Source: Podarcis gaigeae
Lineage: Eukaryota
Length of the DNA stretch: 64,000 nucleotides
Strand: one strand, 5' to 3'
Assembly: GCA_964106915.2 (NCBI GenBank)
Contig: OZ066919.1
Shown: positions 465 to 37,700 of the stretch, piece after piece
Position numbering within the stretch: position 1 is the stretch's first letter
Layout: each line of letters opens with the position of its first letter
Program-made: the position numbers and the translations under genes
Notes under the pieces: model-generated
Database searches by the model: none
Told to the model about the DNA's origin: nothing
Seen by the model: the letters and a program-made list of their open reading frames with translations, nothing else

Positions 465-1949
465 TAAATAAACAAACATCAACTTTTTTTATTTTAAAGC
501 TTAGTTGGGGAGCCTTTAGTTGTTGGACCACATCTTGTTGGACCAAACCACTGGCCATGCTGGCTGGGATTGAAGGGAATTGGAAGTCAAACAACATCGG
601 GAAGGGCTTCTACTCCCTCCAATTTAAACAATATACAAAGTGCTATCTGAAGAAAAGAAGAAACTAATTGGGTTCACACCACAAAGAAATACCCAACACT
701 CAGCATATTAAATTCCTACTGAAATAAATATATATTTGGTTTCTGATCACCAGGACAGCAGTGTTCCTGAAAGTGCAGAGGTCCTCCAATTTTATGCCAT
801 GTTCTTTTGATTCCTCTTGTTAACTGATAGACAACTCAGTGGAAACCTCTCTCTTCCAGTTCCTTCCTCAAGAAGGATTCCCAAGGCCCAATGAAATACT
901 TGATTTTTTCAGATAAGATGTCTGATGTAAGTTGTGCCTGAGCTGATAATGGAAGTGGAAGAGTTCTATATCAGCCTGGAGCTTTCTGCCCATTCCTCTA
1001 GTTTCATTATCACAAGGTGATAAGCCCCTTCAGACAGACCGCAGTAGGAAACCGTAGCATTCCATGTTGATGGAGTTGTCTTATCTCACACAACTAGAAT
1101 CAATTGCTCATTCTTATCGCTACAATGTGAGCCATCCTATCCCCCTTATCATTACAGATTTCTCTGCCTTGATTAACTGTAAGGAATGGTGTAGTTAATA
1201 TGTTAAAGTTTAGCAGAACTTTTAATTCATGGTGGTTAACCCACCTTAAAAATACAAAAGGTATATTGGAAGAAGAATGCATTAAAATGCACTTCTGAAC
1301 CTAGAATGAGCCCCTTAAAGTTAACTTCTGTCACTTGCCCCTCAAGCACATAAATTGACAAATAAACTGCAGTTGTTTTTCTGTCAGTTGAGGGATATTG
1401 ACAAGTTCTTACACCCATTAGCAAGCCTATATACCCCTTTATCCTCCATGTAGGTGGTTGAATACAGACTTACTCTGAATTCGTAGCACTGATGTATCTG
1501 TGAAAAGCATTATTTGAGGGAGGGAAAACCCTCAGCTGGACTTGAAACTCAAGCCGTCTTCTTCCCTGCTACTACGGTACAGTGTACATACTTGAAAGTT
1601 TGTTCCTTGGGAACTGTACAGAACAACACTTGCAACAAATGAGACCAATATCTCCGTAAGTCTGGTAAAGAAATAATGATGTCTAACAACTGTAGAGCAG
1701 TCGGTGTGGAAGCACCTTCACAATGTGCAGTTAAAGTCCAAATGTACCTCTTTAACCACCACCACCCCCTTCCCAACAAACACTGCCAAAGTCAGTGACA
1801 TCAGCATGTCACACGGTGTGCGCACAGCATGCACACTTCACAAAGCACCAACCCCACACAATTGAAGAGGCAGGCTGGTGCACTTGTTCCCGATTATGGT
1901 ACTTTTAGCCAGGCATGATCTAACCTGGGAGAAGAAAACAGTGTCTTAC

Positions 1950-4031
1950 TCTTCAATGCCTCTTCCATTTCACTCTTCCGGTTTGCAGCATGGTACCAGC
2001 TGACCAGCAACCCATCTTTCCGGTCTATTCTCCTCAGATTGAACAAATAATCCAACATATCTCCACCTGTACTGAAGGCTTGAGAATCTAAACAGGAAAT
2101 TGAACACAAATAAACATGGGTTACGCCCAGTGCTTTTTTCTCTAAAAAAATGTTTAGGGGTACTCTCATATCACCATTTTATAGTTTAAATTGGGGAAAA
2201 TAAATACAGTAAATGGACAAAAGTACAGAGATTCACAAAATATTTAGGGGTATGTGTACCACTGCGTCCCCCGAGAAAAAAAGCACTGGTTACTCCTAAT
2301 AAAAACTAAACCTACACACAAAACAAAAGCTTTATGCAAATAAGAAAATAACGCAACTTCCCGTGTTATTCTTCGTAGTTAGAACCAGTTAGTGCATATC
2401 TTTGGTGTTGAAGGAACATACCATATTTCATTCATTTCAAGAAGGGAAGGGTCAACATTTCCTTTCTAAATAAATATACATATGGCTGATAACAAGATGA
2501 CATTTAACAGAAGGGCCAGAATTGGTGCAACAAATGTACAGTATGCCATACCTAAATTTTACAACAATACGTAAGAACAGTTTTGTTGGCAGGTTTTAAC
2601 ATTTTATCCTCCATGAAACTAGACATCAGATTTGCCAAAGTTATTTTCAAGGATAGGAATTGTCCTTGCAACCAGTTAAAGCCTGAAATGGTCTCTCGTG
2701 TGTCCTTTAACTATAGATTTATCAAGGGGTTTGAGAAAGAATAATTTATCCTATTAACAGATGGATTTCTGGTCAAACCTTAGAGAACCTTTTGAGTTTC
2801 TTCCTTGAGGGGTGGTGTTGGTAATATATCTGAAGGTTGTAATACTGTATCTCTCAGACATGCTGTGATTTTTATTTTACTAACTTGTCACCTTTAGTAA
2901 TTCATAATCAGTTCTGCTGAGGTTGTGATTTTGAATTATTTTGTATTTTGTACTTTGCCTAATGGTTAGTTGACTGTAATAAACATTTGATTGATTGACT
3001 GGTTTAGCATCAGGTATCCAAATCCTGTGAGGAGGGGTCTTATGTTACAGTTCACATCTTGGCTTCCCCTTCATGGGCTTACGAGCTCTTGGCTTCGCTT
3101 TCTTCCTTGCTATGTAGAAGTGCTTTTGTTTTAACCCCCCCCCCAAAAAAGGGGTAAAGATCCTTAATCAAAATTCTATGCAAATTCCAAGTATTGAAGA
3201 AGAAAGACACTCAACCTATGGAGTGTTATAACTTAACACTCTGCTTGATACAGAGTCAGACCATTGATCCATCTAGCTCTGTGTTGTCTACACTGACTGG
3301 CAGGGCTTCAGACAAGAAACATCTGGAGATACACAGGGACTGAAACTGGGGCATGGATGCTGTGCCACTGAGCTTTCCACTATAGCCCAGGGAAAATATC
3401 AGGCAAGGTTGTGAGGGTTTCACAGGGGTTGGGTTGAGGCTGTGCACATCTTAGGGAAAACAAAACTGAGTTTGCTCACCTTCCCACTACCCAGCCACCT
3501 CTTGTGTATACCGATTTCATGGAATCCGCCCCAGAAATATCCTGTGAGGCTAAAAGACCTGAAGTAATACATTTCATTGAACCAACTGGCCTCAAAATAA
3601 GTAAGCATTCACATTTTACCATAGAACCTTCCGCCTGAGGAAGAGTTCAGCAAAACAGGGAGCTTGCATACTTGTGCATCAACCTAAGCCAAAAGCAGTT
3701 GCAATCTAGTTGGACTAGATGGCCCTTCGATTCCCTTCCAACTCTACAATTCTATTCTTATAGCTGTAACAGAGAGCTTCTCATGTCAACGTATAGATAA
3801 GAAATGCAATATGAATTCTAACCCAGCAATCACAGCACTTATGTGAAATTCACTGGCCCCCGCCTCCAGCAAACCCTGGTCTTCTTGCTTAGTACCTTGC
3901 GGGGATTTCCTGTTGACTGTCAGGGTTATGGTGAGAGCTATGCAAACGGAAATCACTGCCATGGCAGTGATCACAGCAATGACAACTCCTTTTCTTCCAG
4001 TGGAAGGACACTTCATGCTGGAAGCTGTCAT
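1950..4031 (-). CDS. FAM151A: FAM151A (menorin family), first two coding exons; gene continues beyond the left edge
   Basis: Exon 4031-3896 encodes MTASSMKCPSTGRKGVVIAVITAMAVISVCIALTITLTVNRKSPQ (N-terminal TM anchor) and ends at donor G|GTACTA. Exon 2087-1950 encodes DSQAFSTGGDMLDYLFNLRRIDRKDGLLVSWYHAANRKSEMEEALK, with AG acceptor and A|GTAAGA donor, phases 1/1. It matches the recalled FAM151A motif DMLDY...WYHAAN, and synteny with TTC4/PARS2 agrees. Confidence 0.92.
2128..2288. mobile_element. hAT-type MITE in FAM151A intron
   Basis: TIRs cagtgcttttttc / gaaaaaaagcactg; 8-bp TSD gttacgcc (2120-2127) and gttactcc (2289-2296). Confidence 0.85.
3707..3760 (+). mobile_element. CR1 LINE 3' end fragment
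   Basis: ttggactagatggcc...cccttccaactctacaattctattc resembles the canonical CR1 3' terminus. Confidence 0.65.
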
Positions 4032-4729
4032 GTTCTTTAAGTGTGCCAGCTCCTTGGCAGCTTCACCTATACAATTGCAGTTTCCTTCCAAATACAGGAT
4101 GAGAGAGTAAATGAAGGTGAAGAGGCAATCCAGAATGTTTAAACTCCAGCCAAAAGCCTTGGCCCCCCGAAAACAGGACGAAGGGATCTTAATTCAGTGG
4201 TATTCTTTTTCTCCTTTTAAAAATCCAGAACAGTTCTGAAGAAGTTTCCTTCCAATAATCCACTGTTGCCTTGAAGGGATTCTCTTAATAACTTGTGATT
4301 TTTCTCACTTTAATAATTATTGCCTTGGACAAGTCACTTGCGATACCATGCTACTGTCTTAGAGGAGATTCCTTCTAATGATGTTTTGCTGTCTTGCAGG
4401 TGTTTCTTTTTAAGAAGCTGGTACTTTCTTGAAGAATTGCTTTTCTAACACACCTTCCTGGCCTTCCTTTCTTCTGATAATCTGGCACTGCCTTAAAAAA
4501 TAATTATTCTTTTTTGTTAAAAAAATAGTTCTGTGTTCCTTGCAGGATTTATCTCCTGGCAATCAAAGATCACCATTGTGGAGTAACAGGCTAAGTTTCT
4601 GCAATAGCTATAGGTTTTCTACCAAGAGGGGGGAAAGGCACTGGTGATGATCTCTCTAGCTTAGAAATAATTTTACTGAAGTTCTCTGAGGTTGTGCTCC
4701 TATGAAAAATCCATCAGGGCAATATTTTG

Positions 4730-13449: not shown

Positions 13450-14100
13450 AGGGCAAAGGCGACGTCTCTCCAGAGGCTGAGACTCCCACCCACCGCTGGC
13501 CCCGCCTCAGAGTGGGAAAAAGAGAACTGGGGAGATCCGTCGGAAGAACGAGGTGGGCAACCTCAGAAGGGAGTCGGGTAAGGGAGGTTCGCCTCCACCC
13601 AGTCGGGCTAAGGTAGGTGGGGAACCAGCAGGATCTGGGGTGATCTTTGCAAGCCCTGCGCCGACCAGTCCTGCGCCGCCCCCCCCCCCCCGGCTGAGCA
13701 CCCAGTAGTGTGGCCTGGCCAAAAGACCCCGCCTGAGCAACTGCCTGCCACGAGGGGGCCGCTCCCCTCTCGGATTGGCACCCGTTTTCCCACGATTGCT
13801 GGGGTACGGGCTGAAGTTTCCTCCAGTCGTAGGTAAAAGAGCACTTGCAAAAGAGAAAAGTCCCCCTGTGCAAACTTGCACATCGCGACACGCCCCCCTC
13901 CGCTTGCGCTTCTGACTCGTTTTTAGCACTAGCACGAGGATTTCCCCATCGCCCAGTCCAGTCTGTCTCTGCATTCCCGCCGCAAGGGGGACTTTCTTCC
14001 CAGTTCCGGGATGTAGTTCCGTCTGTTTGCACAGCGAAATGCTTTCCATGCAGATTATCTGGCCGCGCTTGGGGACCGTTTGATGTGGGATCTGTGGTGG
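13450..14100. promoter_or_regulatory. CpG-island promoter, probably of the TMEM205-like gene
   Basis: High GC/CpG content; GC box ccccgcc near 13727, inverted CCAAT (attgg) near 13774, ETS plus ACTACA-like cluster ttccgggatgtagttccg at 14004-14021; candidate donor G|GTAAGC at 14308 for a non-coding first exon. Confidence 0.7.
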
Positions 14101-16038
14101 TGGATCCGCTGCTTTTGAGTGTTGTGCTTGGTTCTTGATCGTATCCTTTCCGACCCTGCTTATTTTGATGGTAAAGATGCCATTCTTGTTTTGGGATCTG
14201 ATCCGGCAGCTTTGCTAGTGTTTGTGTTTCTGAGATTCTAGCATTAGGCGGCGGGGAGTCTGAGTGACACACTGAAAAACGCACCAGTGCAACATTATTC
14301 ATCGGTGGTAAGCAAAGTTTTGTTTTGAAGTTAATATTTCAACTTGCTAGTCGCTGAACACCCGTTTGAAATGTCTTTGGCCACCCACTCGGCTGCAGCA
14401 CCTGCTGTTCTTTCAGACTAAAGGGACGTGACAGTACTGCTATACTAAGGATCAAGAGTGCAATTTATAATCGTGGGATTCCTTTATGCAGAGTTCTTGC
14501 TCATGTACTCCTAATTGCAATTTATCTGAGAATCCCTTGGGGAATACAGTATTTGTCTTTTACTAGCCTCCAAGTTTTCCTTTTGTGCTGCAGGTTGAAG
14601 GGATGAGGAAGACAAGTGTCAGCTTAAGTGTTTCTCTGAAAGTAAACTGCCCATCTTGAGGTACTTAGAAGTTTAAGGAGTGGGAAAAACCTGTTACTCT
14701 CCTAGTTTGCTTTTCCTATATTATATGCAGTATTCTGTTCAGATGAGGATGTGCATTACCCTGCTGAAAATATTTTACTGCTTGGAATAAGGAGCATGTT
14801 GCTGCAATCCCTAACAATTTGAGTCACTTCCCATGACGTCTCTCAAAGCAGTTTCACAATACAATAAAAACCATGTAAAACCATTTCAAATAAATTCAGG
14901 TATGGACTCTTTTGTTATAGCAAGTGGCTTTCATGAGCAGCTATCAGTCGGGATCTACATTTGTAGTTGATTCTCCACCTGGGGGTCTGTAACGGCAAGT
15001 GTATTTTTGGTAGGTGGTTGGAGGATGACGAGGTGGGATGGCTGCAGGACCTGCTACAGACAATTACTGAATAATTTTTTTCATCCCTGCTTGTGGCTTT
15101 CTAGATACTAATGATGTAGGAGTTTGAGTTTCTGTTAGCCCACACCATTCTAATGGTTTTAGCCCATACTAAAATTTACATTTATGCCCTTTGCATCCAC
15201 TTTGTTACAGCACTCTGGACATTTAAAGAATTTCTCCATAATAATTGATGTGCCCCTCACTGGCAACCACCACACATGGAACATTTCCTCTAGCAGGGTT
15301 TCCCAAACTTGGGTCTCCAGCTGTTGTGGGACTACAACATAAATTTGTGACATTGGAAGTGGCCCTAATTTTTGGTAGGCTGAAATAATTGCTTTGAACT
15401 AAATCCAGACCAACTTTACGCAGCCTAAGCATTGACTGGGGTCAGAATTTACCTGAAGTAACAGAGAAGCTTCCCTCCACTGTAATTTGAAGGCCATGGA
15501 ATAAATGCTGGAAAAAATAAATAAAAAAGAAGCCTGTGTTCCAAGTCCTTAAGAATGCAACCCACATCCCTCTGTAATCACTGGTTAAATGCTCATTGGC
15601 ATTAATGGTTCCAGGTGTTGCCCAAAGCCTTTAAAACCTGCACCTGGCTTTATGGTGGCATATGGTGTGCTGACCTGGCCATCTTTTTATCAGTGTAGTT
15701 AAAAGGGGAGGCTATGAGTGCCACTGTTCACAGATGTCTCAGAATAGCTTTCTCTTGGGAGCACTGGCTGAGAATTTTGTTAAGCACTATTAGCTGGTCC
15801 ATTTAAATTCAACTCCTTCACAGCAGCAATACAAAACATATACCCCTAAGAAATGTGGTGTGAGAGAGAACACATGTGACAATTACACTTTAATTTTGAG
15901 GGGACAGGACATTTCTGACTACTTTGAAGCTAAAGTAACTTTCTTTTGCCTCTCAGTGTGTCTGAACAGGTAAAACCAGTGTCTCCCAAGTTGAAGTTTG
16001 GCCAAGGGAGTTGCAAGCGACTATCTTCTTGAAGTACC

Positions 16039-17738
16039 ATGTCCACAGATGCTGATCCCTCGACCTTAGTGAAAGTGCTCCACTTGGTTTTCCTTTCAAC
16101 TTTCTGGGGAATGCAGATCTGGGTGACTTTTATAGCCAGTAGGTTGGGACCGTTCCACAGCCCCCCTCTTTGCACACAGATGCTTAAAGGCCAAATTAAT
16201 CACAGTTAATTTATTTAGGGAGGGATTCAACATTTGGAGCAATGGGAGTGCTCTGCACTGGCATATGCAGTGAATTCAGAAAGGGGAAAAGGGCTACTTT
16301 AGCTTGGCAGTAAGATGTAGGCTGGGCAAATAGGGATAACATTGGCCGGCAAGAAGATTTACTTTCTGGATTGGTGAGTCTATATTCCTAGACACCAAGC
16401 AGCTGAATGATGATGATGTGAAGGTAAAACCACCAAGTGTGGAAAATCCTAATAAACAATGGAAATAAGCACAGCTGTCAACTTTTGGATTTGAAAATAA
16501 GGGATCAGCAGCCTCACCTGTCCCAGGGACAGTCTATGGGATATCTAACAATCCGGGATAGCAGCGGAAAGCAGCGCTGAAATAAGGGAATTTCCCGCAA
16601 AAAAAGGGAATGTTGACAGCTACGGAAATAAGCCAATCTGAAGCTAGAAGAGATTATCTAAAACTGTATACGTCTGCTAATTTTGCATCCAATGGTTTTT
16701 TTAAAAACAGCTATTCATTATTATTTTTAGCATTTAAATAACCTTGTTCCTTTGTGTTCGCCCCACTTGTTCTTGCAGGTTTTGTGATGGGCAACAATCT
16801 CTCACAACATACATTCGGATTCATTCAGAGTTGCCTCTTCCCGTATTACTTCCACATTGGCTCAGCTTGTGCTTTCATCAACCTGACCATATTTGCCATG
16901 TGTCACCCCAGCGAACTTCTCAATGAGGAAGAAACCATGCAGGTAGTGGGCTCCCTCTTTTAAATATCACATGCATCCATTCGTTCGCCATTCTGCTTTG
17001 TTACATGGCCTCGCTTGTGATGGCATGCCTGCCTTAGGAAGAAGTGGTTGGACTGAGAAGCCACCCACGCTTACTAGCAGGGCACTCCTTGTGTTTCCTG
17101 TAACTACCACCACGGCTGGTAGGGGGTAGTATTGAGACAGTAGGTGGTGGGGCAGAGCAGCAAAGGAGCACAGTTTGGTGACTTGGCACAGGAACGGAAC
17201 ATCCTGCACCAAAATATACCCTATTAATCCTAATTTGAAAATGCAATGGCAGGGCCAACCCACAGGGTTATTTTAAGGATGATATGAACTGCTGGGGCCA
17301 CAGGAACCTGCCTAGGTACCAGCCATGAATCTAAATATTATTCCTGCAAAGCGATTGCAGCTACATGTGATATGAAAACCCCCACATACTAGCTGATGCT
17401 ACCAGACAATGAATAGTATAACTATCTTTCCTTTCCAGATTACAGTCTTCTTCATTTGTGTCATAGTTGCTGCTCTAAACGCTCAGTGGTTTGGGCAAGT
17501 GACTTCAGATATTATGGCCGAAATGCACCTGATTGAGCAAAGCTATGGCTTGGGAGAGGATGCTGGGTGGTTCCCGCAGAAGTCCTTTATGCGGCTGCGT
17601 CAACTGGATTCTCATTACAGGGAGCTGACAAGCAGACTGAGCATCTATCATGGTTTCTCTTCCCTCTGCAACCTGTGCTGCATCGCATGCAATGGCTTGA
17701 GCCTCTACTATATGGCTGCTCACCTTTCAACATTATAA
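16039..17738 (+). CDS. TMEM205-like multi-pass membrane protein (DUF4149 family), 187 aa, 3 coding exons
   Basis: Exons 16039-16138 (MSTDADPSTLVKVLHLVFLSTFWGMQIWVTFIA), 16779-16942 (FVMGNNLSQHTFGFIQSCLFPYYFHIGSACAFINL...) and 17439-17738 (ITVFF...YHGFSSLCNLCCIACNGLSLYYMAAHLSTL*). GT-AG introns; 564 nt in frame. Motifs WGMQxWVTF, HTFGxxQSxLFPxYFHI and YHGxSSLCNL match recalled TMEM205. Confidence 0.92.
16470..16624. mobile_element. hAT-type MITE in TMEM205-like intron
   Basis: TIRs cacagctgtcaac / gttgacagctacg; 8-bp TSD gaaataag at 16462-16469 and 16625-16632. Confidence 0.85.
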
Positions 17739-19891
17739 GCACATGGGTAAATAACCTGCATGGGCATGATTGTGAAAAGATGGACTGCAAATGGCAGAAG
17801 CCATGGCCTGGGTTGCTGTAGAGTGCTCCTCCAAGCAGGATTCACAGGTGCTTGGATCACCCTGTTCTGAGTGTAGCATGCTATACATTTTCCAGCCATC
17901 ATTGGGTTGGCGGCCCATGCACTAATCAACCTTTCATAGAACACTGGACTCCTTGTTGATCAATGAGACATCTCATTGTAATAGTAATACTTGGTCACAC
18001 AATTATGAGACAATTTAAATGCCACCCAAATACTTGATGCAAGTAACAGGTTTCTTTTTGAAAATGAAAAATTCGTAAGCAGATACCTACAGCTGAAAAA
18101 GGATTTGTCACTTCATCTGCCCTCTGCTCACCTTAGTCTTCTAAAGGACCAGATATTAACCTTTTAAGGTGGCTGCAGCCTTGATAGTTATGGGTATCAG
18201 CTTAAGGGCACCTATGACTTCCTAACTGTGCTTGCTCTAGTCCAGAGAAAATCTCTTCTGATATCAAATATATTTGATCCCAACTTCTGAAAAGGTAAAA
18301 TGCTCTTCCCAGCCAAAAGGTGACTGGTTTTTAATTCTACCATGGATTATATTAAAGCATTACGTTCCAAAGAGCAACAACAGATGAGGTAATAAAACGA
18401 AATCTAACTGAAGTAATGAATTTGTTTCCCAGCCGAAAGTGCCTTATTGTAAAACGCTCCTGTTCTTTGTTTGCTATACAACAGAGGTCTAGTTTCAAAA
18501 CTCAAGCAGCAGTTTGGTACCTCCTTTTCCCTGGAGACAAGCACTAACCAAGGTTGTTCAGGTAATACTTGCCCTTCTATATAGGTTGAACTCAGGAGTA
18601 AGTTGCTGTACAGCACATCCCTTGCCTTATATGCCTTAAGTTGCGTTTACTGGATCTTCCCACCTCCATGAAAAGTGACGTGAGTTCCAAGTTCAGAAAG
18701 CACTTGTATGAGAGCACTTCAAAAACAATTAAGCTGTATACAGAGGGATGCCAAAGATAGACTCAGTGTGAAGGCGCATCCTTGAGATATTGTACTCTTG
18801 AAACAAGTCATTTTATGTGGTTTTTTTTACTTCTTGTATATTAGCAGCATGGAGAAGGATGCTACTGTGGCCACAATTTTAGCAATTGGGTAGGCGTAAG
18901 AAATGTACCTCCGGAAATTAAAACCATAATTTAGAACATATAAAATGTGCCCAGCTCCTTTTAAAACCTATTTTGGATAGGTTAATGCGATCGTGTCACA
19001 GCAAAAAGCCAGCAAAATTGTAAAGCTCTCAACAATGGCATTCCACATTCCTATGCTGAAGTGCACAAGACAGTAGTGAATAAATCGCAGCTGTGGTTTA
19101 ATCTCAGTGCCTATTGAGCAGGCAAACGCTCTGAATGAATCTATTGGAAAAGTAACAACAGGTGGCAGGCATTTAGGGGTCCCCCTCCATATTCTAACTA
19201 TTCCTAAAACAGAATTGTTAGCTGTGCTTGCATAGCACTGGATGCAAGTATGCTCCCTGACCCCTAGATACACTTATTTTATGGCACTTAAATCTGTAAA
19301 GTTATACTGTGTTGCCCCAAGCTGCAAGTAGAAGCCCCATTAAGATTAACACGGTTTATGGCAAATTGGATATTTCAAGAACTAATCAGATATTAGGGGG
19401 GGGGGGGGAGGGAGAATCTGTTTCTCTCAAGCGAAACTCAGTGAATAATGTAACAGGAGCCCTGCTGAATCAGGTGAAAAAGAGGCCCATATAATCCAGC
19501 ATGTCGTACTCACAGTGCCCAAGCAGATACATGCAAGATGCCTGCATGCAGGACCGAAGTGCCACAGCCTTCTCCCCACCTGTGATACTCCGCAACTGGT
19601 ATTCAGAGACATAACTGCCTTTGACAGTGGAGGGTGAGGTTTTCTACTTAACGTATGCCCTGTTTTGTTCTATTCCTTCACTTTTAAGGAAATGTGAACG
19701 ATGCTTATTCACTCCAATTAAATAGAAGTGCAGGTGCAGTTTCTGTGGTTAGGATTAGGAAATCTGCCATCTCAATTGTTGTAGAAGAAGATACATGTGT
19801 ACGAAATGTTCCGTCTTTTAGTTTAGAAATCTAAAGAGGCCTTGTTTCATTATGTGTTGTATTCCACTCCCAACCCCCTCAAAATGTTCAT

Positions 19892-22800
19892 TCACTTTAG
19901 CCAGTGGACTTTCTTCCCAAAGAAGTAGTTTTTAGAGAAAGGTGCACGTTTCACCAAAACCAAAAAGGTAGGAGTCCCAGCTTTTATGAAGTACCTGCAG
20001 AAACAATTAGAAAGTCAACCTCCAGTCTTGGCTCACAACATTTTAAGATAACCTATATGCTTGTGTTTGTGCATGCATGTTTGCTTACACTACCATCCCA
20101 TTTCCCCACCCCATTCCACACTGAAAAATACTGGAATAACTTGATAGGTTAGATCCTCACCTGCTCTACAAATTTGGAAGAAGATAGGACAGAAACATAA
20201 TATGGGTGGGATTCACCTAACAAGCCCAGTCAGCAGAAGCTCTTATGCCCAGAAATTGGCTCTGGGCAGGGGTCAGGAGAACCTGCAGAATAGCGCACAG
20301 TGGAGAGAAAGGTGGGCTTCATTCTGTCTGGCAAGCTGAAATGTTTGCACAGAGGGAATGCTCACCATGGCATGATGCTCAAGTCCATCACCTGCTTTGA
20401 CTGTTGGAAAATCTAATAGGCTAGGTTGGTAAGAAGAGATGTCCCCGCTGCGAAGATCCATGACATTCTAAAAGTTCAGGCAGGAGCAACTGCAGCAAAT
20501 TACCCTTTCTTTAGAAGCTGATCACCTAACCTTTTGCTACAAGGCAGTATAAAAATACAGCCACCTTTCAGTGAAATGGCTATGCATTGTTATTCCCGTG
20601 TCACGTCTAGCTGGTTCCACTAAGAGAAAACTGAGGCAGCCCTGTAGTGAAATGGATGAATAAGCTTCAGCTGAAGCGGACACCTCTAATCTGAAGTGAC
20701 AACATATGGGCAGTTTTGTTGGCTGTTGATATCTAAGACTACTGTATCCTTAACAGCAGAATCTGCTGACGAACAATTATTTCTCTGTCAGATTACTGTT
20801 AGACAAAAAAAAACCTTCTTGATTTTTTGAAGCAAGTAGATGGATCCTGTTGATTCAACATTACACATGTGTCATTTTGACAATAAAGATGAGTAACATG
20901 CAGTCCCCAGCTCAGAATCTCACCTTTGGTGCTGCAGCGCTTGTAGCAATGTGGTTTCTGTGTCTATCTGGTATATCTCTCCTTTTTCTTCATCCTCAAA
21001 ATACAGCTGTGCAATTTAATATGAGAGACAAATCGACTAAATATGTGAACGAGGACAAGCAACATTACCTGTAAGGCTTAGTACGATATTTATGCAGGTC
21101 AGCAGGGCATCCGTAATACTAACAACCAACAACTCATGTGATGGAAAACCCTTTTTATTGCTTCCGTTTGAGACTGCAGTTTATTAGGGCAAGTTCTGGG
21201 AGTCCAGAATTGTGGTAGTTTAGGGGTTGTTTTTTACCGGATTTAATTTTATTTCTATTTATTGCTTGCCATATACTTCAAGCCTTTGGAAGAGCTAAAT
21301 AAATGAATTTTTATTCAAGCCTACAAATCTAAGTACTTAATGGAAGTTTTAAAACAATTTTGCAGTTGTTTATGGATAACACAACCCTCTGATTTGAGAT
21401 TATTCTCTGCCTGTCTGACCTATCTGTGGCTATATCAGGGTTGGGGAGTTTGGCCCTCCAGATGTTTTTGGACTGCAAATCCCATTAACCCCAGCATAGC
21501 CAATGATCAATGAAGATGGTAATTTTAGACCCAACAGCATTTGAAGAGCCATAAGTTTCCCATTCTTCGCCTGGGATGCAGGTAGAGGCTGACTTAGGCT
21601 CTGTCAAACTCCACGATGAAGCTGTTGCTTAGTATACTGTTGTGTGAAGGCAAAAAGTGTGGTTGCTCTCTCAATCTTTGCTGGAAGGCTCCTTTTTACT
21701 CCCTCTAACCTCAGTCTTTCTGTCCCCTCTCTCTCCACCTCTGCTAGAGCCCATTGCTCCCCTCCCGCCCCTCCTTAGGGTACAAAAGGTCTAGACTCCA
21801 GGCATCCCACATGGGGCTACACTGCTCAGGGTTATATATATTAGAATATCCATTTTAAGAAAGGACAGATAAATGCCAAAAGGCGTTGTATCTTACCTCC
21901 AGTTCACTAGGAATATATTTCTTTTCTACATCCCAGGGAGGTAGTTCTTCAAACATGACCATTAAGTGGTCAATAAATCTGAAACACAAGATGCATCATG
22001 TTACTCTCCAAGCCATTAAGTTCAGCTTCAGCAACTACTAGAGTTGAATTCAAGTAGATACTGTACACTGACGCTTTTGGAATTCAAAGCAATGTAGCTT
22101 CATTAAAGGCTGCTAACCAACGCAGTATTTTTTTAAATTAAATTATTCAATGCTTTTTTCAAAATAGGCATGCTCAGGAAGATCATAAATCTATTCTCTT
22201 ATTTAAGGTTAATCCAAAAATAACTACTTTCTCACAGCACTGCTCAGAGTCTCTAAAATAGCTCACAACCACCACTTCATATAAACATGCTCTAAGACTC
22301 CAAAAGTTTTGGACCACAACTTCCATCATCCCTGTCCATTGCCCATGCTGGCTGGGGCTGAAATGAGTTGTAGCCCAAAACATTTGATGGAAGGCATCAG
22401 GCCGGGGAAGACTTGTTCAGACATTACTGAGATTAGCAGATGAGGCTGGCAGGCATGCTCCTACTCTTCACATTCAGAGCATCTCAATGGTCTTACCAAA
22501 GTACTGGAAAACACATCAAATAAAATGTGTGAATTGAACCCACTGTCTCCTCCCTTCCATATTATGTTCATTTGTATTTATATAAATTCAGCTTTAAAAA
22601 ACAACCACCTCGATTCTTCATGAAAAGAGGAGATGAAGTCACTTTGCCCATGCTCGGGATACAGGAACAGCACAGGCCAGGTTAGGCTGCCATTCTCATC
22701 TAAACAGACTTTGGCACCGATATCATTTTCTGAGCCAAGTCCATCTAAAGACATCTCAGCCAGGTCTGCTGATATTGTTGTGTCTTCCTTAGAGGATGCT

Positions 22801-25800
22801 AGAGACAATTTGATGTTCCGATCCTATATCGGAAGAAAAAAGAAAAAAATAATGAGGCAAGTATCCACATCTTTACACATTAAAAATTTCCAGGGGCAAT
22901 TCTTCCCACCAAAAGAAAAAGTTACCTTGATAGCTTTGAGTAAGGCCTCCTTCCGAGACTGTTCCCTCTTCTCCTGCAATTTAGCTTTTCTGAAATCCCT
23001 CTCTTCAGTGCGCTGAAAGACAAAGCTACATCGTAACTGTGGGGAGGAGATTGCTGTTCCACCAGTCTTAGTCTACTGTATAAACAGGTTTCCATTTGCC
23101 CCCTTCTAACCTTTAGTCTATCAGCTTTAGCTCTTGTTTCCAGAAGTTTCTTTTCTTTTGGATCTATTCTCAATCCCTCCTCGCACCATGTTATGGCTTC
23201 AGAGAAGTGTTTAAGTTCCAAATGGCACAGTGCTCCTAGAAAAGCAAGTTTGTTTCACATATGTCCGCAGCAAACACAGATACACTCAACTAATTTTTAA
23301 AACATCAGTGTGGCAAACAGGGAGGTACACTTACACTGGTCAATTTGTTTCCAGACTGAAGGCACTGAAGAGCCATAGAGGCCTGAATTCTAGGCTGACT
23401 TTTATTTATTTTCTTACATTTATGCCCTACTTTTCTTCCATCATATAACCTAGCATGACCCTACATTTATTATTACGGTACTTTTAGAAGTATTTATAAC
23501 CCACTCTTCACCGACTATTTTCAATCTCAGAGCAGGGAGCCACATAACAAATAATAAAAACATGTCCAGTAAATAATAACAAATTTACAGCTAAACTACA
23601 ATAAGGGCAGCAATTGCAAAGATCTCCCACACCTCTTCCAAAGTAGCAACACCACAAAAGAAGAAGAAGAAGAAAAAAAGACAAGGGTGGCAATAAGCCT
23701 CAACTCTTGTTTATTTCTTCTTCCTGGTCCCAACAAAACTCACAGGGCTCAAATTTGGTAGGGCTGCTGGGAAGGATGCGGCAGGTGGATTTGTGAGCAT
23801 CTCCCATCTCTCTCTTTACTAGCGAGCACAAACAGCATTCAGCATCCTCCCATGGTTCCCAGATGCTAACTAGACCAAGACCTGCTTTGCTTCATTGGAA
23901 TGGTGGTGGTCTCATGTGCCTTCAGACCACATGCTGCCCCTAACATACTACAAATAACTTTGTTCCAAGGTTCCCATGCTTCTTTCTTCTCTCTATCTCA
24001 AGTAGACACAACCCTTTTAAGTTGCATTATGTTAATATTTCATGGCACTTTGAAAGTTTACTTTTCAAGAAGTTTACTTTTATTGCTGTTATACAGTGCC
24101 CCCACTTTCTTAATTACACGGAGGCCTTTATTAAAATGCAACTGTTGAACGTTCTTTTACCTCTTGTAATTGCCTTGAGGTGAGTGGGTTTCAGTTTTCT
24201 TGCTGCGATAGCATCATTGAGAGCAGAGCGATAGTTACCTAAACAAAACATACCTCTGTAAAACCTGGGTCATTACATTGGATTTGTAAAGGAGGCTGGC
24301 AAATTGCTCCCTAAGAAACACTGGGCTACACTGAGGCAAGACACACAAGGTCTTCAAATATGACATTAATTTATATGGGTAATGAAAAGAGGAGGCATTA
24401 TAACAGATTTCAAAAGCTGCCCCTCTTTTTTATAAATGTATTTGATAAATAATAATTTGATTTTGTTGCAAAAACTTCAACACAACCTATTACTTCTTGG
24501 CTTTCTTTTCAGACTCTGTATTTGAGGCTATTCATCCCTACTAAAAACCAACAGCCCTCAATTCTTTTATTTATCCAGACTAGCTGCTCAAGAGACATCT
24601 CTGCTTGCACATACTGAGTCTTGGGACCTGGAATACATTGGATCAAATTATGTCTAACAAAATTTAAAGCACTGCAATGTGGACAGTGACAGCCAAACCA
24701 GATGCAATATTATGCATATTTGAGAGTAAGTCCTAATGAACTCAGTGCTGCCTATTTTTTGGGGGGAGCTCCACATACACTGCTAAATTCACATCTAACA
24801 AGGATAAGGGTCTAAAATTTAGCATCCACAATACTACTTGTTTGTTTGTTTAAAAAAAATTCAAAAACAACTTTATGACTGCTGGAACAGCAGTCCTACC
24901 TTTGATATTCTTCTGCTATATAGAATTTGAACTAGGCACAATTTTGAATGCAATACATTACCCAAATAAAACTGGGCTGCAGCTCTGTTTGTATGAAGAA
25001 CAGTATTCAATTCTGGATCATTGCACTTCTTTTTCAATCCTTCTGAATAGGATATCACAGCCTTCTTATAATCCTTTCCCTTGAAATAATCATTGCCCTC
25101 ATTCTTATAGGCCTGGGCTTGAAAAACACCAATAAAGATAAACATTGCAACGTTAGAAAAGCAATTATAAGCACTCCTTTAAAAGTCAAGTTATCTATAA
25201 CAGATAAAGCACAGATCTTATGCTTCCCAGAAAACTCAAGCTAATCAGCCTGCTACACTATGCTTTTTTGCTTTTATACCAAAGGGGGTCAAGGATATTT
25301 CTGCAGCTATTAAAGTTTTTAATGCTATGATAACCTCTCATTTTTTTATGGAGCTGTGTGTGCCAGCCAAGTTAAATTTCTACAAGTCCTATGAGCCCCA
25401 ATATGTATTTTTTGAAATGGGACAGTGCCCTTTCAAGATAAACACTTGGTTGTCAACCTTAAAGCTCTGGCTTAAGATCTTTATTTTCAAAATGGGAATA
25501 CAGTAGGGCCGTCAGCTCATTTATCTGTGGACACCTATTGCAGCATTTGGACAAAGGTTATGACAGAGGCTGTATTTGACTGTCACCCTTTCTCCTTCAA
25601 ATGGGACACAACATAGCACCTGCCTTGGTAAGACAAAGCTGGGATGTCTCTTTTCAAGACATTGAACTGATTGAAATGAAACAATTATGCCCTTTGATTC
25701 CTAGAGAAAGTGTTGCGAGAACAATGTAAATTTCATCAGCTGATACATTTACAGTATGTAAGTGGAGACTACCTTCAGTTGTTTGGTCCTCATCAAAAAT

Positions 25801-27752
25801 AATAGACTGAAGACAAGCAAGGTCAGGATTCTGCTTAGGATCTATTTCAGCAGGAGCTTTCCTCATGAACATTGGGATCTGGTCAAATTCCTGTCAACAA
25901 ATGCAGGCAGCCCAAGTTACCAAGGATAGAAGAAAAGGGTTCAAAATAGCCACATGTCTTTGGAAATAGAGCCTTTATTCGAGATACTTAACAGAAGAAC
26001 TTGCATTTTTTCCCTCCCATACATTGAATTTTGTCCTTGGGTATTTCTAAAGAATTCACTTAATTCATAGTTCTTGGCTTTCTAGGTAAGTAATTTCAGA
26101 CTTAGCATCAGCCCTTGCTAAACCTTCAAACCCACCATTTTCCTGTTACAAAAACACAAAACCAAACCAAAAGGAATGTAAGATATAGATCCTGTAATAT
26201 CCGTCATTGAATTATATTAAATTTCTCTATTCTTTCAAGTCAATTCTTGTTTACCAAGAAAGACACATTGGTGAGGTTAGCACATAATGCTAAACCATTG
26301 TTTATTAAACTACAGTTTATTAAACTGTATCATCAATAAACTAGTTAATAATAAACTAGTTTAATAAACAGTATGGAAAAATGTGACTAGAGAATTCATC
26401 ATCTTATTCAACATCTAGCCCTCCCTCCAGAATTCTGGCCCTCCCTCCAAATGTTGTTGGATTCCAATATCCATCAGCCACAGTCAGCATGGTCAAGGGA
26501 CAGCAAAGAGGAGAGAACAGTCCAGCAAAGTCTGCAGAGTCACAAGTTCCCAAATTCAGGTTACAATAAAAATATATATATTTTTTGATACACTGACATG
26601 TATTGTGAACTTGCAACCCAATATGCAGGTTTAAAATGCTACCTGCTCTAATGTCACAACACACATCCCACCCCTTGGTTAGAAAGTCAACATCCACTGT
26701 ACATGGTCAAATTGTAAGTTTCAGTTGCCAAATTGTATTGACAACATTGTGCCAACCTAACAGTTATAGTTTGCAAGTGGCCTCTGTTGTTACGTGCAGA
26801 TTCAGTATATACCAACAACTGCTCCATGATAAAACAATGGTGACAATATTTTAAATGTCAATGTGAAACATTACTGTGCTGCAAAAACCCACGGCTGTCA
26901 GGAAAACCTGTCCAGAAGTCGGTCATGTTCTCTAAAACTGCACTCTACATCCAGGTGTGGGAGATGACTGGTTATTAACACTGGAGGCAAGGCATTCTGC
27001 ACACGCTCTAGAGGCACTCTCATCTTTACTGCTGGCTCATATGCCTTGAAGTTGAAAGTAGGCTCCAGAACTGACCTCTGGCTCAATCATAATTTAGTAG
27101 AGCTAACCAGCAATGCTCACAACAAATAACCCTATTAAGATCTGTACCATCAACCCTCGCCTTGCAGTGGTTAGGAGGAAGACTGGGAATTAGTGGTTTG
27201 CAGAAGGCTAGCCAGTGTTTGTTTATATCTTACCTTTCATCCAAGGAGCTCAAGACAGCGCGCATGATCCAACCCCCTTCCACATGTCATCCTAAAAACA
27301 ACAACAACCCTGCGAGGTCGTTTAGGCTGAAAGAGGCAGTGACCGGCTCAAAGCCACCCCAGCAAACTTCCCGGGCGAGTGGGAGATTTCGAACTCGGGT
27401 CCTATCCCGACATTCAAAACTGCAGACCAATTCCCCCCCAAAAGCTCACCCTCTGCCAACCTGTCAGGGCTGTTAGAGAGGACGGAAAGGGGGGGGGGGA
27501 CAAGAGGCCGGCGAAAAGTGGAGGCTGGAGACTAAACTAAGAGGCTGGAGACTCTTCCCCAACTTGGCATCTCCCCAGGAGCCCGTGCAGTCGAGCGCGG
27601 CCACCGGCTCCGCCCTCGTCCCGCCGCCCGGAGAGACGCACCTGCTCCCAGTTGTCGGGGCTGAGGGCGCCCGCGTAGCGCTCGGGGCCGCGGAACCGGT
27701 CCAGGAAGGCATCCCAGCCCGCCTCGTGCTCTTCCTCCTTCTCCGCCATCAT
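19892..27752 (-). CDS. TTC4: Tetratricopeptide repeat protein 4 (HSP70/HSP90 co-chaperone, Cns1 homolog), 385 aa, 10 exons
   Basis: Exons 27752-27642, 25890-25773, 25117-24962, 24238-24161, 23235-23111, 23012-22926, 22823-22609, 21978-21897, 21006-20924 and 19994-19892. All GT-AG with consistent phases, 1158 nt. Motifs NPDLACLQSIIFDE, YKNEGNDYFK, TNRAAAQFYLGN, WPVLFLYPE and SDFISSFHE match recalled TTC4. Confidence 0.96.
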
Positions 27753-31700: not shown

Positions 31701-34700
31701 TTCAGTGGTAGAGCACATATCTTCCATGCAAAACACCCTGGGGACAACCCCTGGCATCTCAAGACAGGGCTGGAGAAGACTCTGACATCCTGGAGAACGG
31801 ATGCTGTTTAATGTAAAGCAGTAGTCAGAACTAGTAGACAACATACAAGGTACTGGCAGGTTTCATCCAGAACTTCTTCATGCTCAGGCCAAGCTTTCCT
31901 GCTGATAACCTGCTTTGGTAGTTTCCATCCCAGGAACTGAAAGGATTCATTTAAGGCATAACTACATTCCTGCAAGATATGGAGATGATATATCGTTTTT
32001 TTACAGCATTCAGAAAACAAAACGGCCAACTACTGAATATTCTTTAGAAGGGACACACCTTCTGGTATTTGCTCATCAAGGGACAGAAAATGTGAATGTT
32101 GAGGTTTAGTATATTTACACTCAAGGAAGCATGAAAACACTGTATGGGAAATGCACCCTGAAGACAAAATGTATTGAGGAGTTAGTGATCTGACACAGAG
32201 CCCTTCCTGCCTCTGTTTCTCCCCCTCTCTTGCTCTTGTTAAGTTTTTTGATGGTGTGAGAACAGTCTTAGATGTCCTGAGAACATTGGGAGGAGGTGAA
32301 GCCCGCCCCCCACAGCTGCCTCATCTGTTGTGAAGGATAATGATGGGTACCCTCTTCCATGTTGGACATTCTTTTGAGAAAGTGAGGCATTGGGAGGGGG
32401 GGCTATCTATAAAATTGGACAGTTCAGGTAGAGTTTCTTTGAAGCTCATGCACAGACTGATTGGCTGCAGAGCCGTGCAAACTGAGGCTACCTGGGGGAG
32501 TCGCTTCGCTGCTTCTTGAGGGCTTCCAAGTGGCAGGCTGAAGTGCTTGCTTGGTATGTATATGTTGCTTGCTGTTTTAGAATAAAATCTTTAATCTTCT
32601 CACTCACTTGTGTAGTTTGAATTGCTTCTGAATCTCATTTTAAAAGAACCACCTTGCCTTTGGCAAGACATGCACTCAGATGGGAGGCAGAAAAGGCTAG
32701 AAGATAGAACTTTTTAAATTATCTGGTTGGTGAGAAGCATGATGGTTCCCCTGAAAACAAAGAAATGTTGGCAGAAGCTTGCCTTGTGGATGTCAGGGTC
32801 CTCCTCTTCGAGATGCAGAAGTAATGGAACCAAGTTTTCTAGTACCTGATGCCTCATTGCATGCTTGTTATTTTTCTTAGCCCATTTCACCATTTTCCCA
32901 AAAAGACATATGGCGGAAGCACGGACACTTGCTCTTTCCTGTCTCAAAAACAAAAGAAGGCAGTGAGATTGTTTCAGTAGAGAGTGACATGCAAACTGAG
33001 CCTGATTAAAAATTTGTAATCCCATTTCTCCATTATTTTTTAAAATGATCATTTCATTTCATGAAGCACCTCAAAGCGATTTCACAATACGATAAAAACA
33101 TATGCCAGGCTAGTGCCAAACGTATTGCTCTGGTGTCCACATCAGTGAGGTTGAGAGGTGGGGTCTTTGTCGTCTGGGCAGCCCAGAACCTCCATACACC
33201 CTGCCCAGCCTTGCATCCTGGGGAGATCACTTTGGTGCTGCTAATGCAGCAGTTTGACTTCACCCCTGGAGGTGCACTCCATTGTCTCTCGAGACAGACG
33301 GATGCCAGCAACAACAACAAACGTATCTAAAACAATCACATAAAAGTAATCCAAAAGCATTATATATTAAAAACAGTTAAAAATAATCACATATACTGCA
33401 TATGTATGTAATGTAATACTACTGGGATAAAAAATCTCCACTTAGAAGGCTTGTTGAAAGTGGAAAGTCTCCAGCAGATGCTGAAAAGGCCATAAAGATT
33501 CCACCTGTCTGAAATGTAATGGGAGTTCAAAAGGTTAGATACCAGCACACTAAAAGCCAGATTCCCCTTCATGTGGAATGAGCCTTCTGATAAGATGGAA
33601 TCTGCAGTATGTCCTCTCCTGCTGAGTGCAGTGATTGGTTTGGTATGTAAGGGATGAGATTATTTTTCAGATATCCTTGTCCCAAGCTGTATAGGGCTAT
33701 ATGGAACGGTTCATACGAGTGAATAGTAGCTGCTGCATTTTGCCCCCCATAGGGGGTTTCTGATTTTGGGGTATTGTTAAAGGATGACAAGTTGTCTACC
33801 TTATTACTATATTTTTGGCACCGCATGAGGATTTTCTGCCTCAGACTTTAACAGCTATTAGGTTATCTCCATTTTTTTACCTTACTGAAGCTATGCAGCA
33901 TCTATCTCTGGGCAGGGTTATCAGCTGTCAAATTTTTATTTTGCTCCCCTACGCTCAGTGTCACACCTATGATTCTCCCCTGCTATTTTATTCTTACAGC
34001 AACCTTGTGAGGTTGGTTAGGCCAAGAAAAAGAGCGACAGCCACAAGGACACCGAGTTTCTTTAATGGCACTGCCAGACTAGGGATCTGAACCTGAGAGT
34101 CTTTAAGTCCCACACTCCAGGCACTGCACCATATTGGTTCTCATTGTCAACGTGACCTCAAGAGAAAACCACTTCTGTGAGAGGGTAGGCCTGCCTCTTG
34201 GCTTGTAACAAAACCCAGCTAGTGTGACACTGCTTTCTTACATTGCTGAATAGTTCCTGAAGAGAAAGGCTGATATCGCAAATACAGTCTGCTCCTTCTG
34301 GGCCATTAAGAATCTTCTCAATTTCAGCAACTGCCTCTACAAACAGCTGCCCATCCATCCCAGAAAGACCTTTTGTCATGACAGGCAATACAATCTTTAC
34401 TTCCTCCTGCACAGAAAGGCATAATTTAAGTTAATAAACAGTCAAACCTCGGTTCTCAAATGGCTCCATTTTTGAACGTTTTGGCTCCCGAATGCCGAAA
34501 ACATGGAAGTAAATGCTCTGGTTTTTAATGTTTTTCGGAACCTGAACGTCTGACGCAGCTTCCGTTTTGAGTTTCCCTATTGAATTGAGGCTTCTGCTTT
34601 CAGTTTTTGAATGTTTCAGAAGTCAAATGGTCTTCTGGAACGGATTACGTTCGAAAACTGAAGTTTCATTGTACCAGACCTATGGATAACAAGCTATCTG

Positions 34701-37700
34701 GATGTTATGTTTAAGCATGAAGCAGTGGACAAGAAACATAATTTTAAGGCAAAGAAAGTGAAATAGCAATGGAGAATTAATATTTCATTGTAATATAATG
34801 TATGGTACTCACCTTCTCCAAGTGATAAAGTCTATTAAAAATAAAATCTTATACATGCCTGCTCAGAAGTAAGCCACACTGGCACATCAATATTTCCAAT
34901 TCTGGGAAAATTTTATAAGTGCATTCAACTGAGAACACTTAAAAAAATCTTCATGCTAAGCATGCAAAATGCTGAAGAGCAGTCCATGTGTCTATAGGTG
35001 TTTAGGGCATAATTTGCTTATGTCACGTACTGGAGAATTTGTGGCCAAAACTCATAGGCTTTGGAGATTACTGCTATTTTTTGGATGGGATTCAATTCAA
35101 CATACTGGAAAATTCAGGTTGCTCAATTAAAGTTGATTTTGTGCTCTTGCACAACAAACACACTTCACCCAAAATCAGACTTTTTGTAATAAGGAAAATT
35201 ATCGGAAAACACACTGGAAAGTATGGGCTAATTATTGATTGACACAACAATATAGATCCTCCCCACAAACAAATCAGAATGAATGATCAGTACAGTAAAT
35301 AGTTCATGTTGTCTAACTGCTCCACAAATTTTGTGCAAATTGAGCTGAATGCAATTAAATCCTCAACAGATATCCCTGAATTTATCAACTAAATCCAGTG
35401 AAATCATATGATGGGCCCTGTTGTTTACCTTTCCTATCCAGTATGCAATGTTAACCAGTCCTTTGATACACAATGCCCGGATGACTGGGTTTTCATTAGC
35501 CAGTCCTCGCTTCAGACGATACAAAGAATATTGTTTGGGAAGTCTTCTGGCCTCTGACATACAAAGAAGCTAAAAGACAAAGAAGAGGTCCATGAGAATT
35601 TGGTTCACAAGCAACTGCCTGCTTCAGATGCCAAAAATGTACTAACTTGTTTCTGGCACTTGGTTATCAATCCTCCCCAAAATTCCAAAGTACACAGTGG
35701 CCCTTCCAATGGATGCACAATCTGTTTCTTCGTCCATGTTAAGCAAAAATGGCTTGCAGTAGTTGCACCCATCCATTCTTCTGCCTTCCGGTGATTTACC
35801 GTATATTGTTTATTCTTTGTGCTGCAATCAACCACAGCAGGGGTAGGGAATCTCCAGTATGTGGACCAAATTTGGCCAGCACAGGTCCCAGTTTGTCCCA
35901 TGAGGCCATTTCCCCTGAGCCATGCCTACTTGCCGCACATCTGATGTCATATGTGACATGACCTGATGCCAAATGTGTAGGGAAAATAAGGACCAACCTA
36001 GCATTAGAGATCATGCACTTTCTCAAGTTCTGTTGTTACTTATTTTGCCACAGTTGAACAGCTTCTGCTTTCAGGTAGGTAGCCGTGTTGGTCTGACGCA
36101 GTAGAAATATATATAATTATTTTTTTTTTTAAAAAATTGTCCAGTAGCACCTTAGAGACCAACTTAGTTTGTTCTTGGTATCAGCTTTCTGCTTTGAATA
36201 AGTAAAACTGTGTTGTTTTAATAGACCAAATATTATTTATCAAATTTATTCTGCCAGCATCCTACACAAAATGCAACAGGATGAAGCGGCTCTTCAGATG
36301 CACTGTTACAAATATATTCTGTTTGATCCAACTCCACTTACACCACCAGTAACAACTATCTGAGAACATAACCACAGAGTCACAGGTGGGCATTATCACT
36401 ATGTTTGTACAACCATCCTTGGAATCAAGGCCAACAAGCCACTCTGCATTCCCAGAAAGGCCTCTATGGTTCCACAGTGCAGAAGTTGCATCTTCCTTAC
36501 TTCGCTGAAGAAAGCCAATCCTGTGATCTGGTGCTCTTCATCACCTCGCTCCAGGAAGGGAACTAGGAGGTACAAGATCCTCAAAAGGTCATAATTGGAG
36601 GTCTGAAGCATGATTCTGGTTAGGAAAGACAATGCAGATGTACACCGTTATGGCCAGTGGTTAACTCTACACTTGGGAATTTTTGTAAATGTTTGGGGTG
36701 CTCTAACCAAATGTTTACCACCGCGCACCTTGCAATAAGGCCTACTCCCCGATGGTGATCTTCACAGCTGGTGAGGAGCTCCCAGCCCCGCTCCTTCTCA
36801 ATAAGAGTAAACTCACAATAGCACCTCACAGCTAGGAGAAGAATCTTCAGTGCTGCTACAATATAGCTGAATTTAAAAATAAAATATGATACACATCAAG
36901 AAGCAGGTGTAGCACAGTGGTGACTTCCCAGTTGGGAAGTCTCCAGTTCAAATGTTACCTCTGCCACAAACCCAATCACTAGGTGGCCTTAGGTAAGGCT
37001 AGACTCAACCCTCCATCTGCAATATGGGGATAATATTACCATATTTTTTGCTCTATAAGACTCACTTTTTCCCCTCCTAAAAAGTAAGGGGAAATGTGTG
37101 TGCGAATGGAGCGAATGCAGGCTGTGCAGCTATCCCAGAAGCCAGAACAGCAAGAGGGATCGCTGCTTTCGCTGCGCAGCGATCCCTCTTGCTGTTCTGG
37201 CTTCTTGGATTCAGAATTTTTTTTCTCTTGTTTTCCCCCTCCAAAAACTAGGTGCATCTTGTGGTCTGGTGTGTCTTATAGAGCGAAAAATACGGTAGTC
37301 TGCTTTACAGGGTCACTGTAGGATTATCAATGAAAGCACTAGAGCACTTTGGAGAAATTCTATACAGTTGTACCTTCATTCTCGAACGCCTTCTGACTTG
37401 AACGCCACAAACCTGGAAGTGAGTGTTCCGGTTTGTGAACGTTTTTTGGAAGCCAAATGTCCAACGCGGCTTCTGTGGCTTCTGCCTGAGTGTAGGAAGC
37501 TCCTGCAATCAATCAGAAGCCGCGCCTTGGTTTTCGAATGTTTTCAGAAGTCAAACAGACTTCCGGAACTGATTCCGTTTGAGAACCAAGGTATGACGGT
37601 ATACAATTTAAACACTGTTGCTCAGCACTAGCTGAAGCTTCTGAATCAGACTCAGGAGCAGCCCCGTATATAGCATACACTGCAGTAATCAAGCCTTGAG

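Follow-up and report, generated by a model that had tools for sequence, protein, structure and literature searches.

An intact TMEM205L gene beside TTC4 in the lizard Podarcis gaigeae, a probable genome-duplication sister of TMEM205

Genes and transcription at the locus

The window, the whole 64,000-nucleotide stretch of Podarcis gaigeae DNA analysed here (GenBank assembly GCA_964106915.2, contig OZ066919.1), carries in order FAM151A (- strand), TMEM205L (+), TTC4 (-), a gene of the MROH family (-) and PARS2 (-). The features, numbered from the first letter of the window, are as follows.

1897..4193, - strand: 5' exons of FAM151A, approximate; Menorin-domain exon at 1.9-2.2 kb (E 3e-4, below the cut-off)
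13500..14500, no strand: CpG island, likely promoter region of TMEM205L, with RNA-type contigs on it; composition in two 500-nt windows is given below
13894..14307, + strand (presumed): likely first, non-coding exon, 5' end approximate; contigs 13939-14306 (run X1) and 13894-14181 (run X9), donor GT at 14308; the link to the next exon is presumed
15957..16038, + strand: 5' UTR portion of the first coding exon; preceded by the acceptor AG at 15955-15956, free of upstream ATG triplets, start codon with A at -3
16039..16138, + strand: TMEM205L coding exon 1, residues 1-33, followed by a phase-1 intron; tblastn with shark, koala and lizard homologs; a run X1 contig ends at 16140
16779..16942, + strand: TMEM205L coding exon 2, residues 34-88; Pfam DUF4149 at 36 bits, tblastn
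17439..17738, + strand: TMEM205L coding exon 3, residues 89-187 and stop; 76 homologs; contigs of runs X1 and X9 start at 17436
17739..19891, no strand: 3' UTR zone between the tail-to-tail genes TMEM205L and TTC4, shared by both and covered by unstranded run X1 contigs
19892..27751, - strand: TTC4 coding span; Pfam TPR and Wheel, PDB 6HFO at E 1e-20, spliced joint 19992-20922 (runs X1 and X5), start exon
31811..47582, - strand: MROH-family (Maestro HEAT) gene, ends approximate; Pfam HEAT_Maestro and HEAT_MROH2B_C on four exon ORFs
58207..59703, - strand: main coding exon of PARS2; tRNA-synt_2b and anticodon-binding domains

The three coding exons of TMEM205L join into a frame of 564 nt that runs from ATG to TAA, is free of internal stops and encodes 187 aa. 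Both introns (640 and 496 nt) begin with GT, end with AG and contain pyrimidine tracts. Exon 2 alone exceeds the cut-off for Pfam DUF4149 (PF13664; 36 against 24.6 bits). The Podarcis muralis protein XP_028589219, annotated as 'transmembrane protein 205-like', is 99.5% identical to the window protein, from which it differs at one residue, and scores 79.8 bits against the same cut-off. TMEM205L in the window is a real, intact gene, and the annotation of lacertid relatives already includes the same gene. A preliminary description of this DNA had proposed a complete, spliced 187-aa gene of the TMEM205 family; the open frame, the GT-AG introns and the DUF4149 match agree with it. Its argument that a gene with introns is not a retrocopy also holds, and the two coding introns rule that reading out.

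The transcript evidence covers three presumed RNA runs, taken from three studies of a related organism, and one further run holding 95% of the words. The CpG-rich stretch at about 13.5-14.5 kb, upstream of the gene, has a GC content of 0.61 and a CpG observed/expected ratio of 0.64 at 13501-14000, and values of 0.53 and 0.79, respectively, at 13751-14250. The island that the preliminary description had assigned to the gene is thus present, and from the RNA-type contigs on it we infer its role as the promoter of TMEM205L. In the run X1 contig at 13939-14306, 30 unplaced letters remain just before the donor GT at 14308, and the fit of contigs from runs X1 and X5 starts at 15955, after 28 and 90 unplaced letters. 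The two contigs that start at 17436 come from different studies. Contig ends near exon edges, such as these and that at 16140, may represent branch points of the assembly graph between spliced and unspliced forms. Splicing as modelled is rated as likely, and not higher, because the coding junctions of TMEM205L are not among the 15 contig joints shown out of 41 and because low-depth contigs also cover the introns. It is considered highly likely that the gene is transcribed from the CpG island, with its 5' UTR exons spliced. The stop codons of TMEM205L and TTC4 lie 2.15 kb apart. Polyadenylation hexamers occur in the zone between them at 18351, 18391, 18917 and 19079 on the + strand and at 19102 and 18335 on the - strand, and the two 3' UTRs likely overlap in antisense. 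The depth of reads in this zone is not assignable to TMEM205L, because TTC4 ends there on the opposite strand.

The placement between FAM151A and TTC4, also taken from the preliminary description, is firm on the TTC4 side; on the other side it rests on the sub-threshold Menorin-domain exon, which we take to be FAM151A. The exon at 58207..59703 is presumably PARS2, by its position. The MROH-family gene between TTC4 and PARS2 was missing from the earlier list of genes and, by its position, would be MROH7. RAB3D and CCDC159/LPPR2, which flank canonical TMEM205, are not the neighbours of the window gene; FAM151A, TTC4, the MROH gene and PARS2 take their place. We take the human order to be FAM151A (-), MROH7 (+), TTC4 (+) and PARS2 (-). 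Unlike in this arrangement, TTC4 and the MROH-family gene in the window (19892-47582) share the strand of FAM151A and PARS2. On the assumed human order, therefore, the MROH7-TTC4 block is inverted between lizard and human with TMEM205L at one end of it, and the gene probably adjoins an inversion breakpoint.

Two further features of the window were observed. Long open frames with a CpG-rich end lie at 9982-11725 (- strand); they have no Pfam matches and, to our eye, presumably resemble the 5' part of an L1-type retroelement. A 162-base assembly gap lies at 49183-49344, past the last identified MROH exon.

Relationship to TMEM205 and distribution among vertebrates

TMEM205L is already known and named and is not a new paralog. 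Lovell et al. 2014 (PMC4290089, Additional file 1, Tables S2 and S3) gave the name to a gene near TTC4 in alligator, opossum and birds, and in their Table S2 four bird entries named 'TMEM205' were corrected to TMEM205L. The gene of the window is the same one: a TMEM205 paralog near TTC4, misnamed TMEM205 in birds. Adjacency to TTC4, the mark of the gene in that work, is found in the window in a tail-to-tail arrangement. Those tables list TMEM205L as missing in lizard, where lizard means Anolis, whereas the window copy is intact in a lizard; the rows concerned are without fish or shark members and without a genome-duplication argument, and the text traces a related set of pairs back to an ancestral tetrapod (PMC4290089). 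Two database entries represent the same gene, namely the RefSeq/UniRef 'transmembrane protein 205-like' protein of P. muralis, one residue away, and zebrafish si:ch211-121a2.4, which belongs to the TMEM205L clade and is known as a database entry only. The main-text literature on TMEM205L, on the zebrafish entry, on a loss of TMEM205 in birds or on a DOCK6/DOCK7 paralogon yielded nothing on this paralog; the prior report was in a supplement, and others may sit in supplements. A search of the supplement of Bornelöv et al. 2017 (PMC5470226) gave no match to the name TMEM205. The words 'largely uncharacterised' of the preliminary description are fair for function, but the paralog itself has had its name since 2014 (PMC4290089). 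What this analysis adds is that lizards carry the gene, that it is at least as old as the shark split, that the turtle copies are apparently decayed and that it lies beside a probable inversion breakpoint.

Exon 3 as the query gave 77 candidate homologs, of which 76 passed, and a second query, residues 10-80 of the protein from Zootoca, gave 91, of which 89 passed. A profile search against 1.84 billion representatives gave 797 matches, of which 150 were listed, and supplied the TMEM205-type and invertebrate sequences; a further search, with 120 of 257 matches listed, returned nearly all canonical TMEM205. The tree holds 72 proteins: 90 were chosen from about 450, 22 redundant, partial or distant ones were removed and 4 were added. 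It contains two vertebrate clades. One, TMEM205L with 28 rows (support 100/99), unites the window protein with its alligator, opossum and bird counterparts; the other, TMEM205, has 32 rows (95/95). Each has cartilaginous fish at its base and includes ray-finned fish, a caecilian and amniotes, and 15 species have one sequence in each clade. The vertebrates are separated at 100/99 from ten outgroup rows, of which the two named ones, amphioxus and a hemichordate, fall outside both clades. Identity between TMEM205L and TMEM205 is 42-47%; the window protein is 46.5% identical to lizard TMEM205 and 69% identical to the L protein of a chimaera. On these sequences TMEM205L is an ancient sister gene of TMEM205 that split off before sharks and bony vertebrates diverged.

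Both genes are found in five lacertids (P. muralis, P. lilfordi, P. raffonei, Zootoca and Lacerta agilis; the species of the window is not among them), TMEM205L on records of 95-102 Mb and TMEM205 on records of 40-43 Mb. The order of accession numbers was rejected as a proxy for the chromosomes of skate, in which a nearby number maps to another chromosome. In the TMEM205 clade, the models from alligator and caecilian read through into a Rab-3 gene (RAB3D in the alligator, a Rab-3 in the caecilian), and these fusions therefore tie that clade to the known RAB3D locus.

Plain 'transmembrane protein 205' is the database name of the bird, crocodilian, zebrafish and several shark members, as would suit a true ortholog of mammalian TMEM205 that has merely moved. 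That reading is scarcely credible, since a tree with rat TMEM205 forced into the TMEM205L clade is rejected (AU p 0.001), rat and echidna cluster in the other clade (99/92), and lacertids have a separate TMEM205; the bird names are misannotations in the rows of Lovell et al. 2014 (PMC4290089). No supporting point was found for a recent duplicate within lacertids or reptiles or for a retrocopy; these readings deserve practically no credence in view of the higher identity to the chimaera L protein than to lizard TMEM205, the two introns, and an AU p of 1e-39 when lacertid TMEM205L is forced together with lacertid TMEM205. A translocated ortholog and a young lacertid duplicate were the cases that the preliminary description had named as fatal to its view, and its claim of a second gene distinct from mammalian TMEM205 is borne out by the two-clade tree, the AU test and the presence of both copies in the five lacertids.

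The sole eutherian in the tree is rat. Its TMEM205 sits on a long branch (0.71-0.80; echidna 0.09) and has no H76-P77 motif, which is otherwise retained in both clades; alligator TMEM205 likewise looks diverged at this motif. The rat TMEM205 cluster includes a 69-aa sequence assigned to Mycobacterium kansasii; it comes from a 265-base contig and is probably contamination. Salvator has a fragment and the fish Aldrovandia a long-branch copy among the divergent additional sequences of TMEM205L type, which also include a bird-like one.

The preliminary description had proposed to seek the gene in other vertebrates, and it is present in birds, crocodilians, a caecilian, fishes and sharks, and, among the sequences collected, only as apparently decayed copies in three turtles. 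Lizards, crocodilians, many birds, koala, Tasmanian devil and the caecilian Rhinatrema are among the matches of the two homolog searches taken together, and the fish matches comprise bowfin, zebrafish si:ch211-121a2.4, sturgeon, sharks, rays and chimaera. TMEM205L is intact in at least 15 named species of lizards and amphisbaenians in addition to the window. The cluster of the koala protein holds 12 proteins from 9 marsupial species, which with Tasmanian devil makes ten marsupials. The statement that the gene was kept in reptiles and lost in mammals did not hold: ten marsupials, birds, crocodilians, a caecilian and ray-finned and cartilaginous fishes keep it, and in the three turtles it appears decayed. 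The TMEM205L-type proteins of Macrochelys (flagged as low quality), Pangshura and Gopherus are patchy and nearer to the TMEM205L clade than to TMEM205, and the two that were scanned gave no DUF4149 match. We read the three sequences as decayed copies, and an independent decay of TMEM205L in turtles appears likely. The turtle TMEM205 clade is intact. The three patchy proteins have odd stretches in common, which suggests one shared decay.

Among the 76 and 89 matches of these narrow searches, no TMEM205L-clade protein was named from snake, frog, salamander, coelacanth, monotreme, Anolis or a eutherian. Together with the data of Lovell et al. 2014, this absence in limited searches makes a loss on the eutherian line very likely. 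No bird or marsupial protein of the TMEM205 clade was found among the matches listed (120 of 257) in a likewise narrow search, and Yin et al. 2019 (PMC6321700) reported low-confidence TMEM205 contigs for chicken and duck, with genome matches at 37-46% identity. The losses look reciprocal, with TMEM205L decayed in turtles and absent in eutherians and TMEM205 reported missing in birds.

Origin of the gene pair

The vertebrates stand apart from the invertebrates at 100/99 and cartilaginous fish occur in both clades; the duplication is therefore placed, on the protein tree, after the split from amphioxus and before the gnathostome radiation. The lamprey sequence fell outside both clades in 763 of 1000 bootstraps, with TMEM205L in 102 and with TMEM205 in 132 (support 76/23). 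In a 32-row tree its support was 47/0, neither of the two alternative placements was rejected (AU p 0.40 each) and the program gave a long-branch warning.

Human TMEM205 lies at 11.45 Mb on chromosome 19 and adjoins RAB3D. We take ELAVL3 to lie near it, and SSBP3 to lie near FAM151A. Huang et al. 2023 (PMC9974502) placed ELAVL4, RAB3B and SSBP3 on ohno-chromosome A of cac15, which corresponds to chicken 8 and human 1, and ELAVL3 on ohno-chromosome B of cac15, which corresponds to chicken 30 and human 19. The marker genes of human 1 and 19 thus match the published A and B sisters of cac15 (PMC9974502), and the proposed tie to the loci of TMEM205L and TMEM205 uses background human positions. TMEM205 does not appear in the ohnolog table of that work, which covers only groups of three or more copies. 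The second duplication was limited to jawed vertebrates according to Simakov et al. 2020 (PMC7269912). The pair of a macro- and a micro-chromosome and the weak position of the lamprey outside both clades would fit this second round.

TMEM205L and TMEM205 are most probably whole-genome-duplication ohnologs. An ancient duplication of a segment or of the single gene, on the stem of vertebrates or gnathostomes, with a position on paralogous chromosomes that is coincidental or due to later movement, is compatible with the tree because the placement of the lamprey is ambiguous. For the genes immediately around TMEM205L (FAM151A, TTC4, MROH and PARS2), no sister beside TMEM205 came to light, and the lack of TMEM205 in a table of groups of at least three copies points the same way. 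Such an origin is nevertheless improbable, in that the timing falls in the window of the genome duplications and the human regions of the two loci, on positions that are partly background, would belong to the sister chromosomes A and B of cac15. Of the 'probable lost ohnolog' in the preliminary description, the ancient paralog stands and the genome-duplication origin is likely; it was not lost in all mammals.

Predicted protein and possible function

The AlphaFold model of the P. muralis protein, built with 116 sequences, has a pLDDT of 85 and four long helices (9-40, 43-75, 83-123 and 146-182); it replaced an earlier model from 18 sequences with a pLDDT of 63. The product is likely a four-helix membrane protein, as predicted by this model. 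A sequence search of the PDB returned only a stretch of melibiose permease (E 0.034), taken as chance, Foldseek gave nothing at E 0.001 for either model, and the matches from VIA-align were four-helix bundles of a generic or designed kind, the best with Z 14.1, rmsd 3.1, 146 aligned and 6% identity. Foldseek also returned copper storage proteins in weak rows (E 2.8), which were given no weight.

Canonical TMEM205 (human 19p13.2, beside RAB3D and CCDC159) resembles TMEM205L in its DUF4149 domain, its length of about 188 aa, four helices and shared core residues. It differs in its separate clade at 42-47% identity and in its neighbours, and TMEM205L has more Cys, Met and His. Residues conserved in both clades are W23-G24-M25-Q26, H44, Q50, F54-P55, N102, E121, Y148 and C165-N166. 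All 28 L rows have C64, C169 and C172, which are common in TMEM205 as well, and in the sequence comparison Cys and Met are conserved in helices 1, 2 and 4. The clade means for TMEM205L and TMEM205, respectively, are 7.5 and 4.8 for Cys, 7.6 and 5.4 for Met, 7.3 and 5.7 for His, and 9.4 and 16 for basic residues. Fixed differences between the clades include M37 and H118. Human TMEM205 was described, at second hand in a review (PMC9333335), as conferring selective resistance to cisplatin and oxaliplatin by export of platinum drugs, for which sulfur residues in helices 2 and 4 are needed. In that review functional data concern only the human protein, the natural substrate of which is given as undefined (PMC9333335).

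By analogy with the human protein, TMEM205L might tentatively be taken to pass soft-metal compounds along Cys and Met ligands. Whether the two proteins overlap in function enough for either copy to be lost is, by the same analogy, an evenly balanced question, and the identity of 42-47% together with the fixed differences could mean different jobs. TMEM205L may possibly have a job distinct from that of TMEM205, such as tighter metal binding in one tissue, with the losses reflecting loss of that job and not redundancy. Most lineages kept both copies, a retention that dates back over 400 million years, and the richer content of Cys, Met and His, the poorer content of basic residues and the fixed M37 and H118 are consistent with such a division. 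The core residues common to both clades argue against it, as do the reciprocal-looking losses of TMEM205L in turtles and eutherians and of TMEM205, reported missing, in birds.

Overall, lizard TMEM205L is very probably best explained as an intact sister of TMEM205, likely of genome-duplication origin, encoding a predicted four-helix membrane protein that may export soft-metal compounds via Cys and Met. In this account a TMEM205 ancestor would have duplicated before the split of sharks and bony vertebrates, likely in a vertebrate whole-genome duplication, and the two copies would then both have been kept from sharks to amniotes. Overlapping function would permit the loss of either copy, and TMEM205L would have been lost on the eutherian line and have decayed independently in turtles. 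The gene would be transcribed from the CpG island via spliced 5' UTR exons, and its four-helix product may use cysteine and methionine contacts to export soft-metal compounds, in the manner reported for human TMEM205. A more specific version is unlikely: a second-round ohnolog pair with three reciprocal losses (TMEM205L in eutherians at the MROH7-TTC4 breakpoint, TMEM205L in turtles and TMEM205 in birds), in which the slower, Cys-richer TMEM205L keeps the ancestral metal site. If it were true, it would be through TMEM205L that the natural substrate of the human cisplatin-resistance protein could better be sought.

An ohnolog lost in placental mammals belongs to a common class and is unsurprising. 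The record is corrected in that TMEM205L is not missing in lizards and, on the protein tree, is at least as old as the shark split. The 'TMEM205' entries of birds, crocodilians, zebrafish and some sharks are TMEM205L, so that wrong copies are compared wherever these are treated as orthologs of the human cisplatin-resistance gene. As a conserved sister with extra Cys and His, TMEM205L may help, by comparison, to identify the natural substrate of TMEM205.
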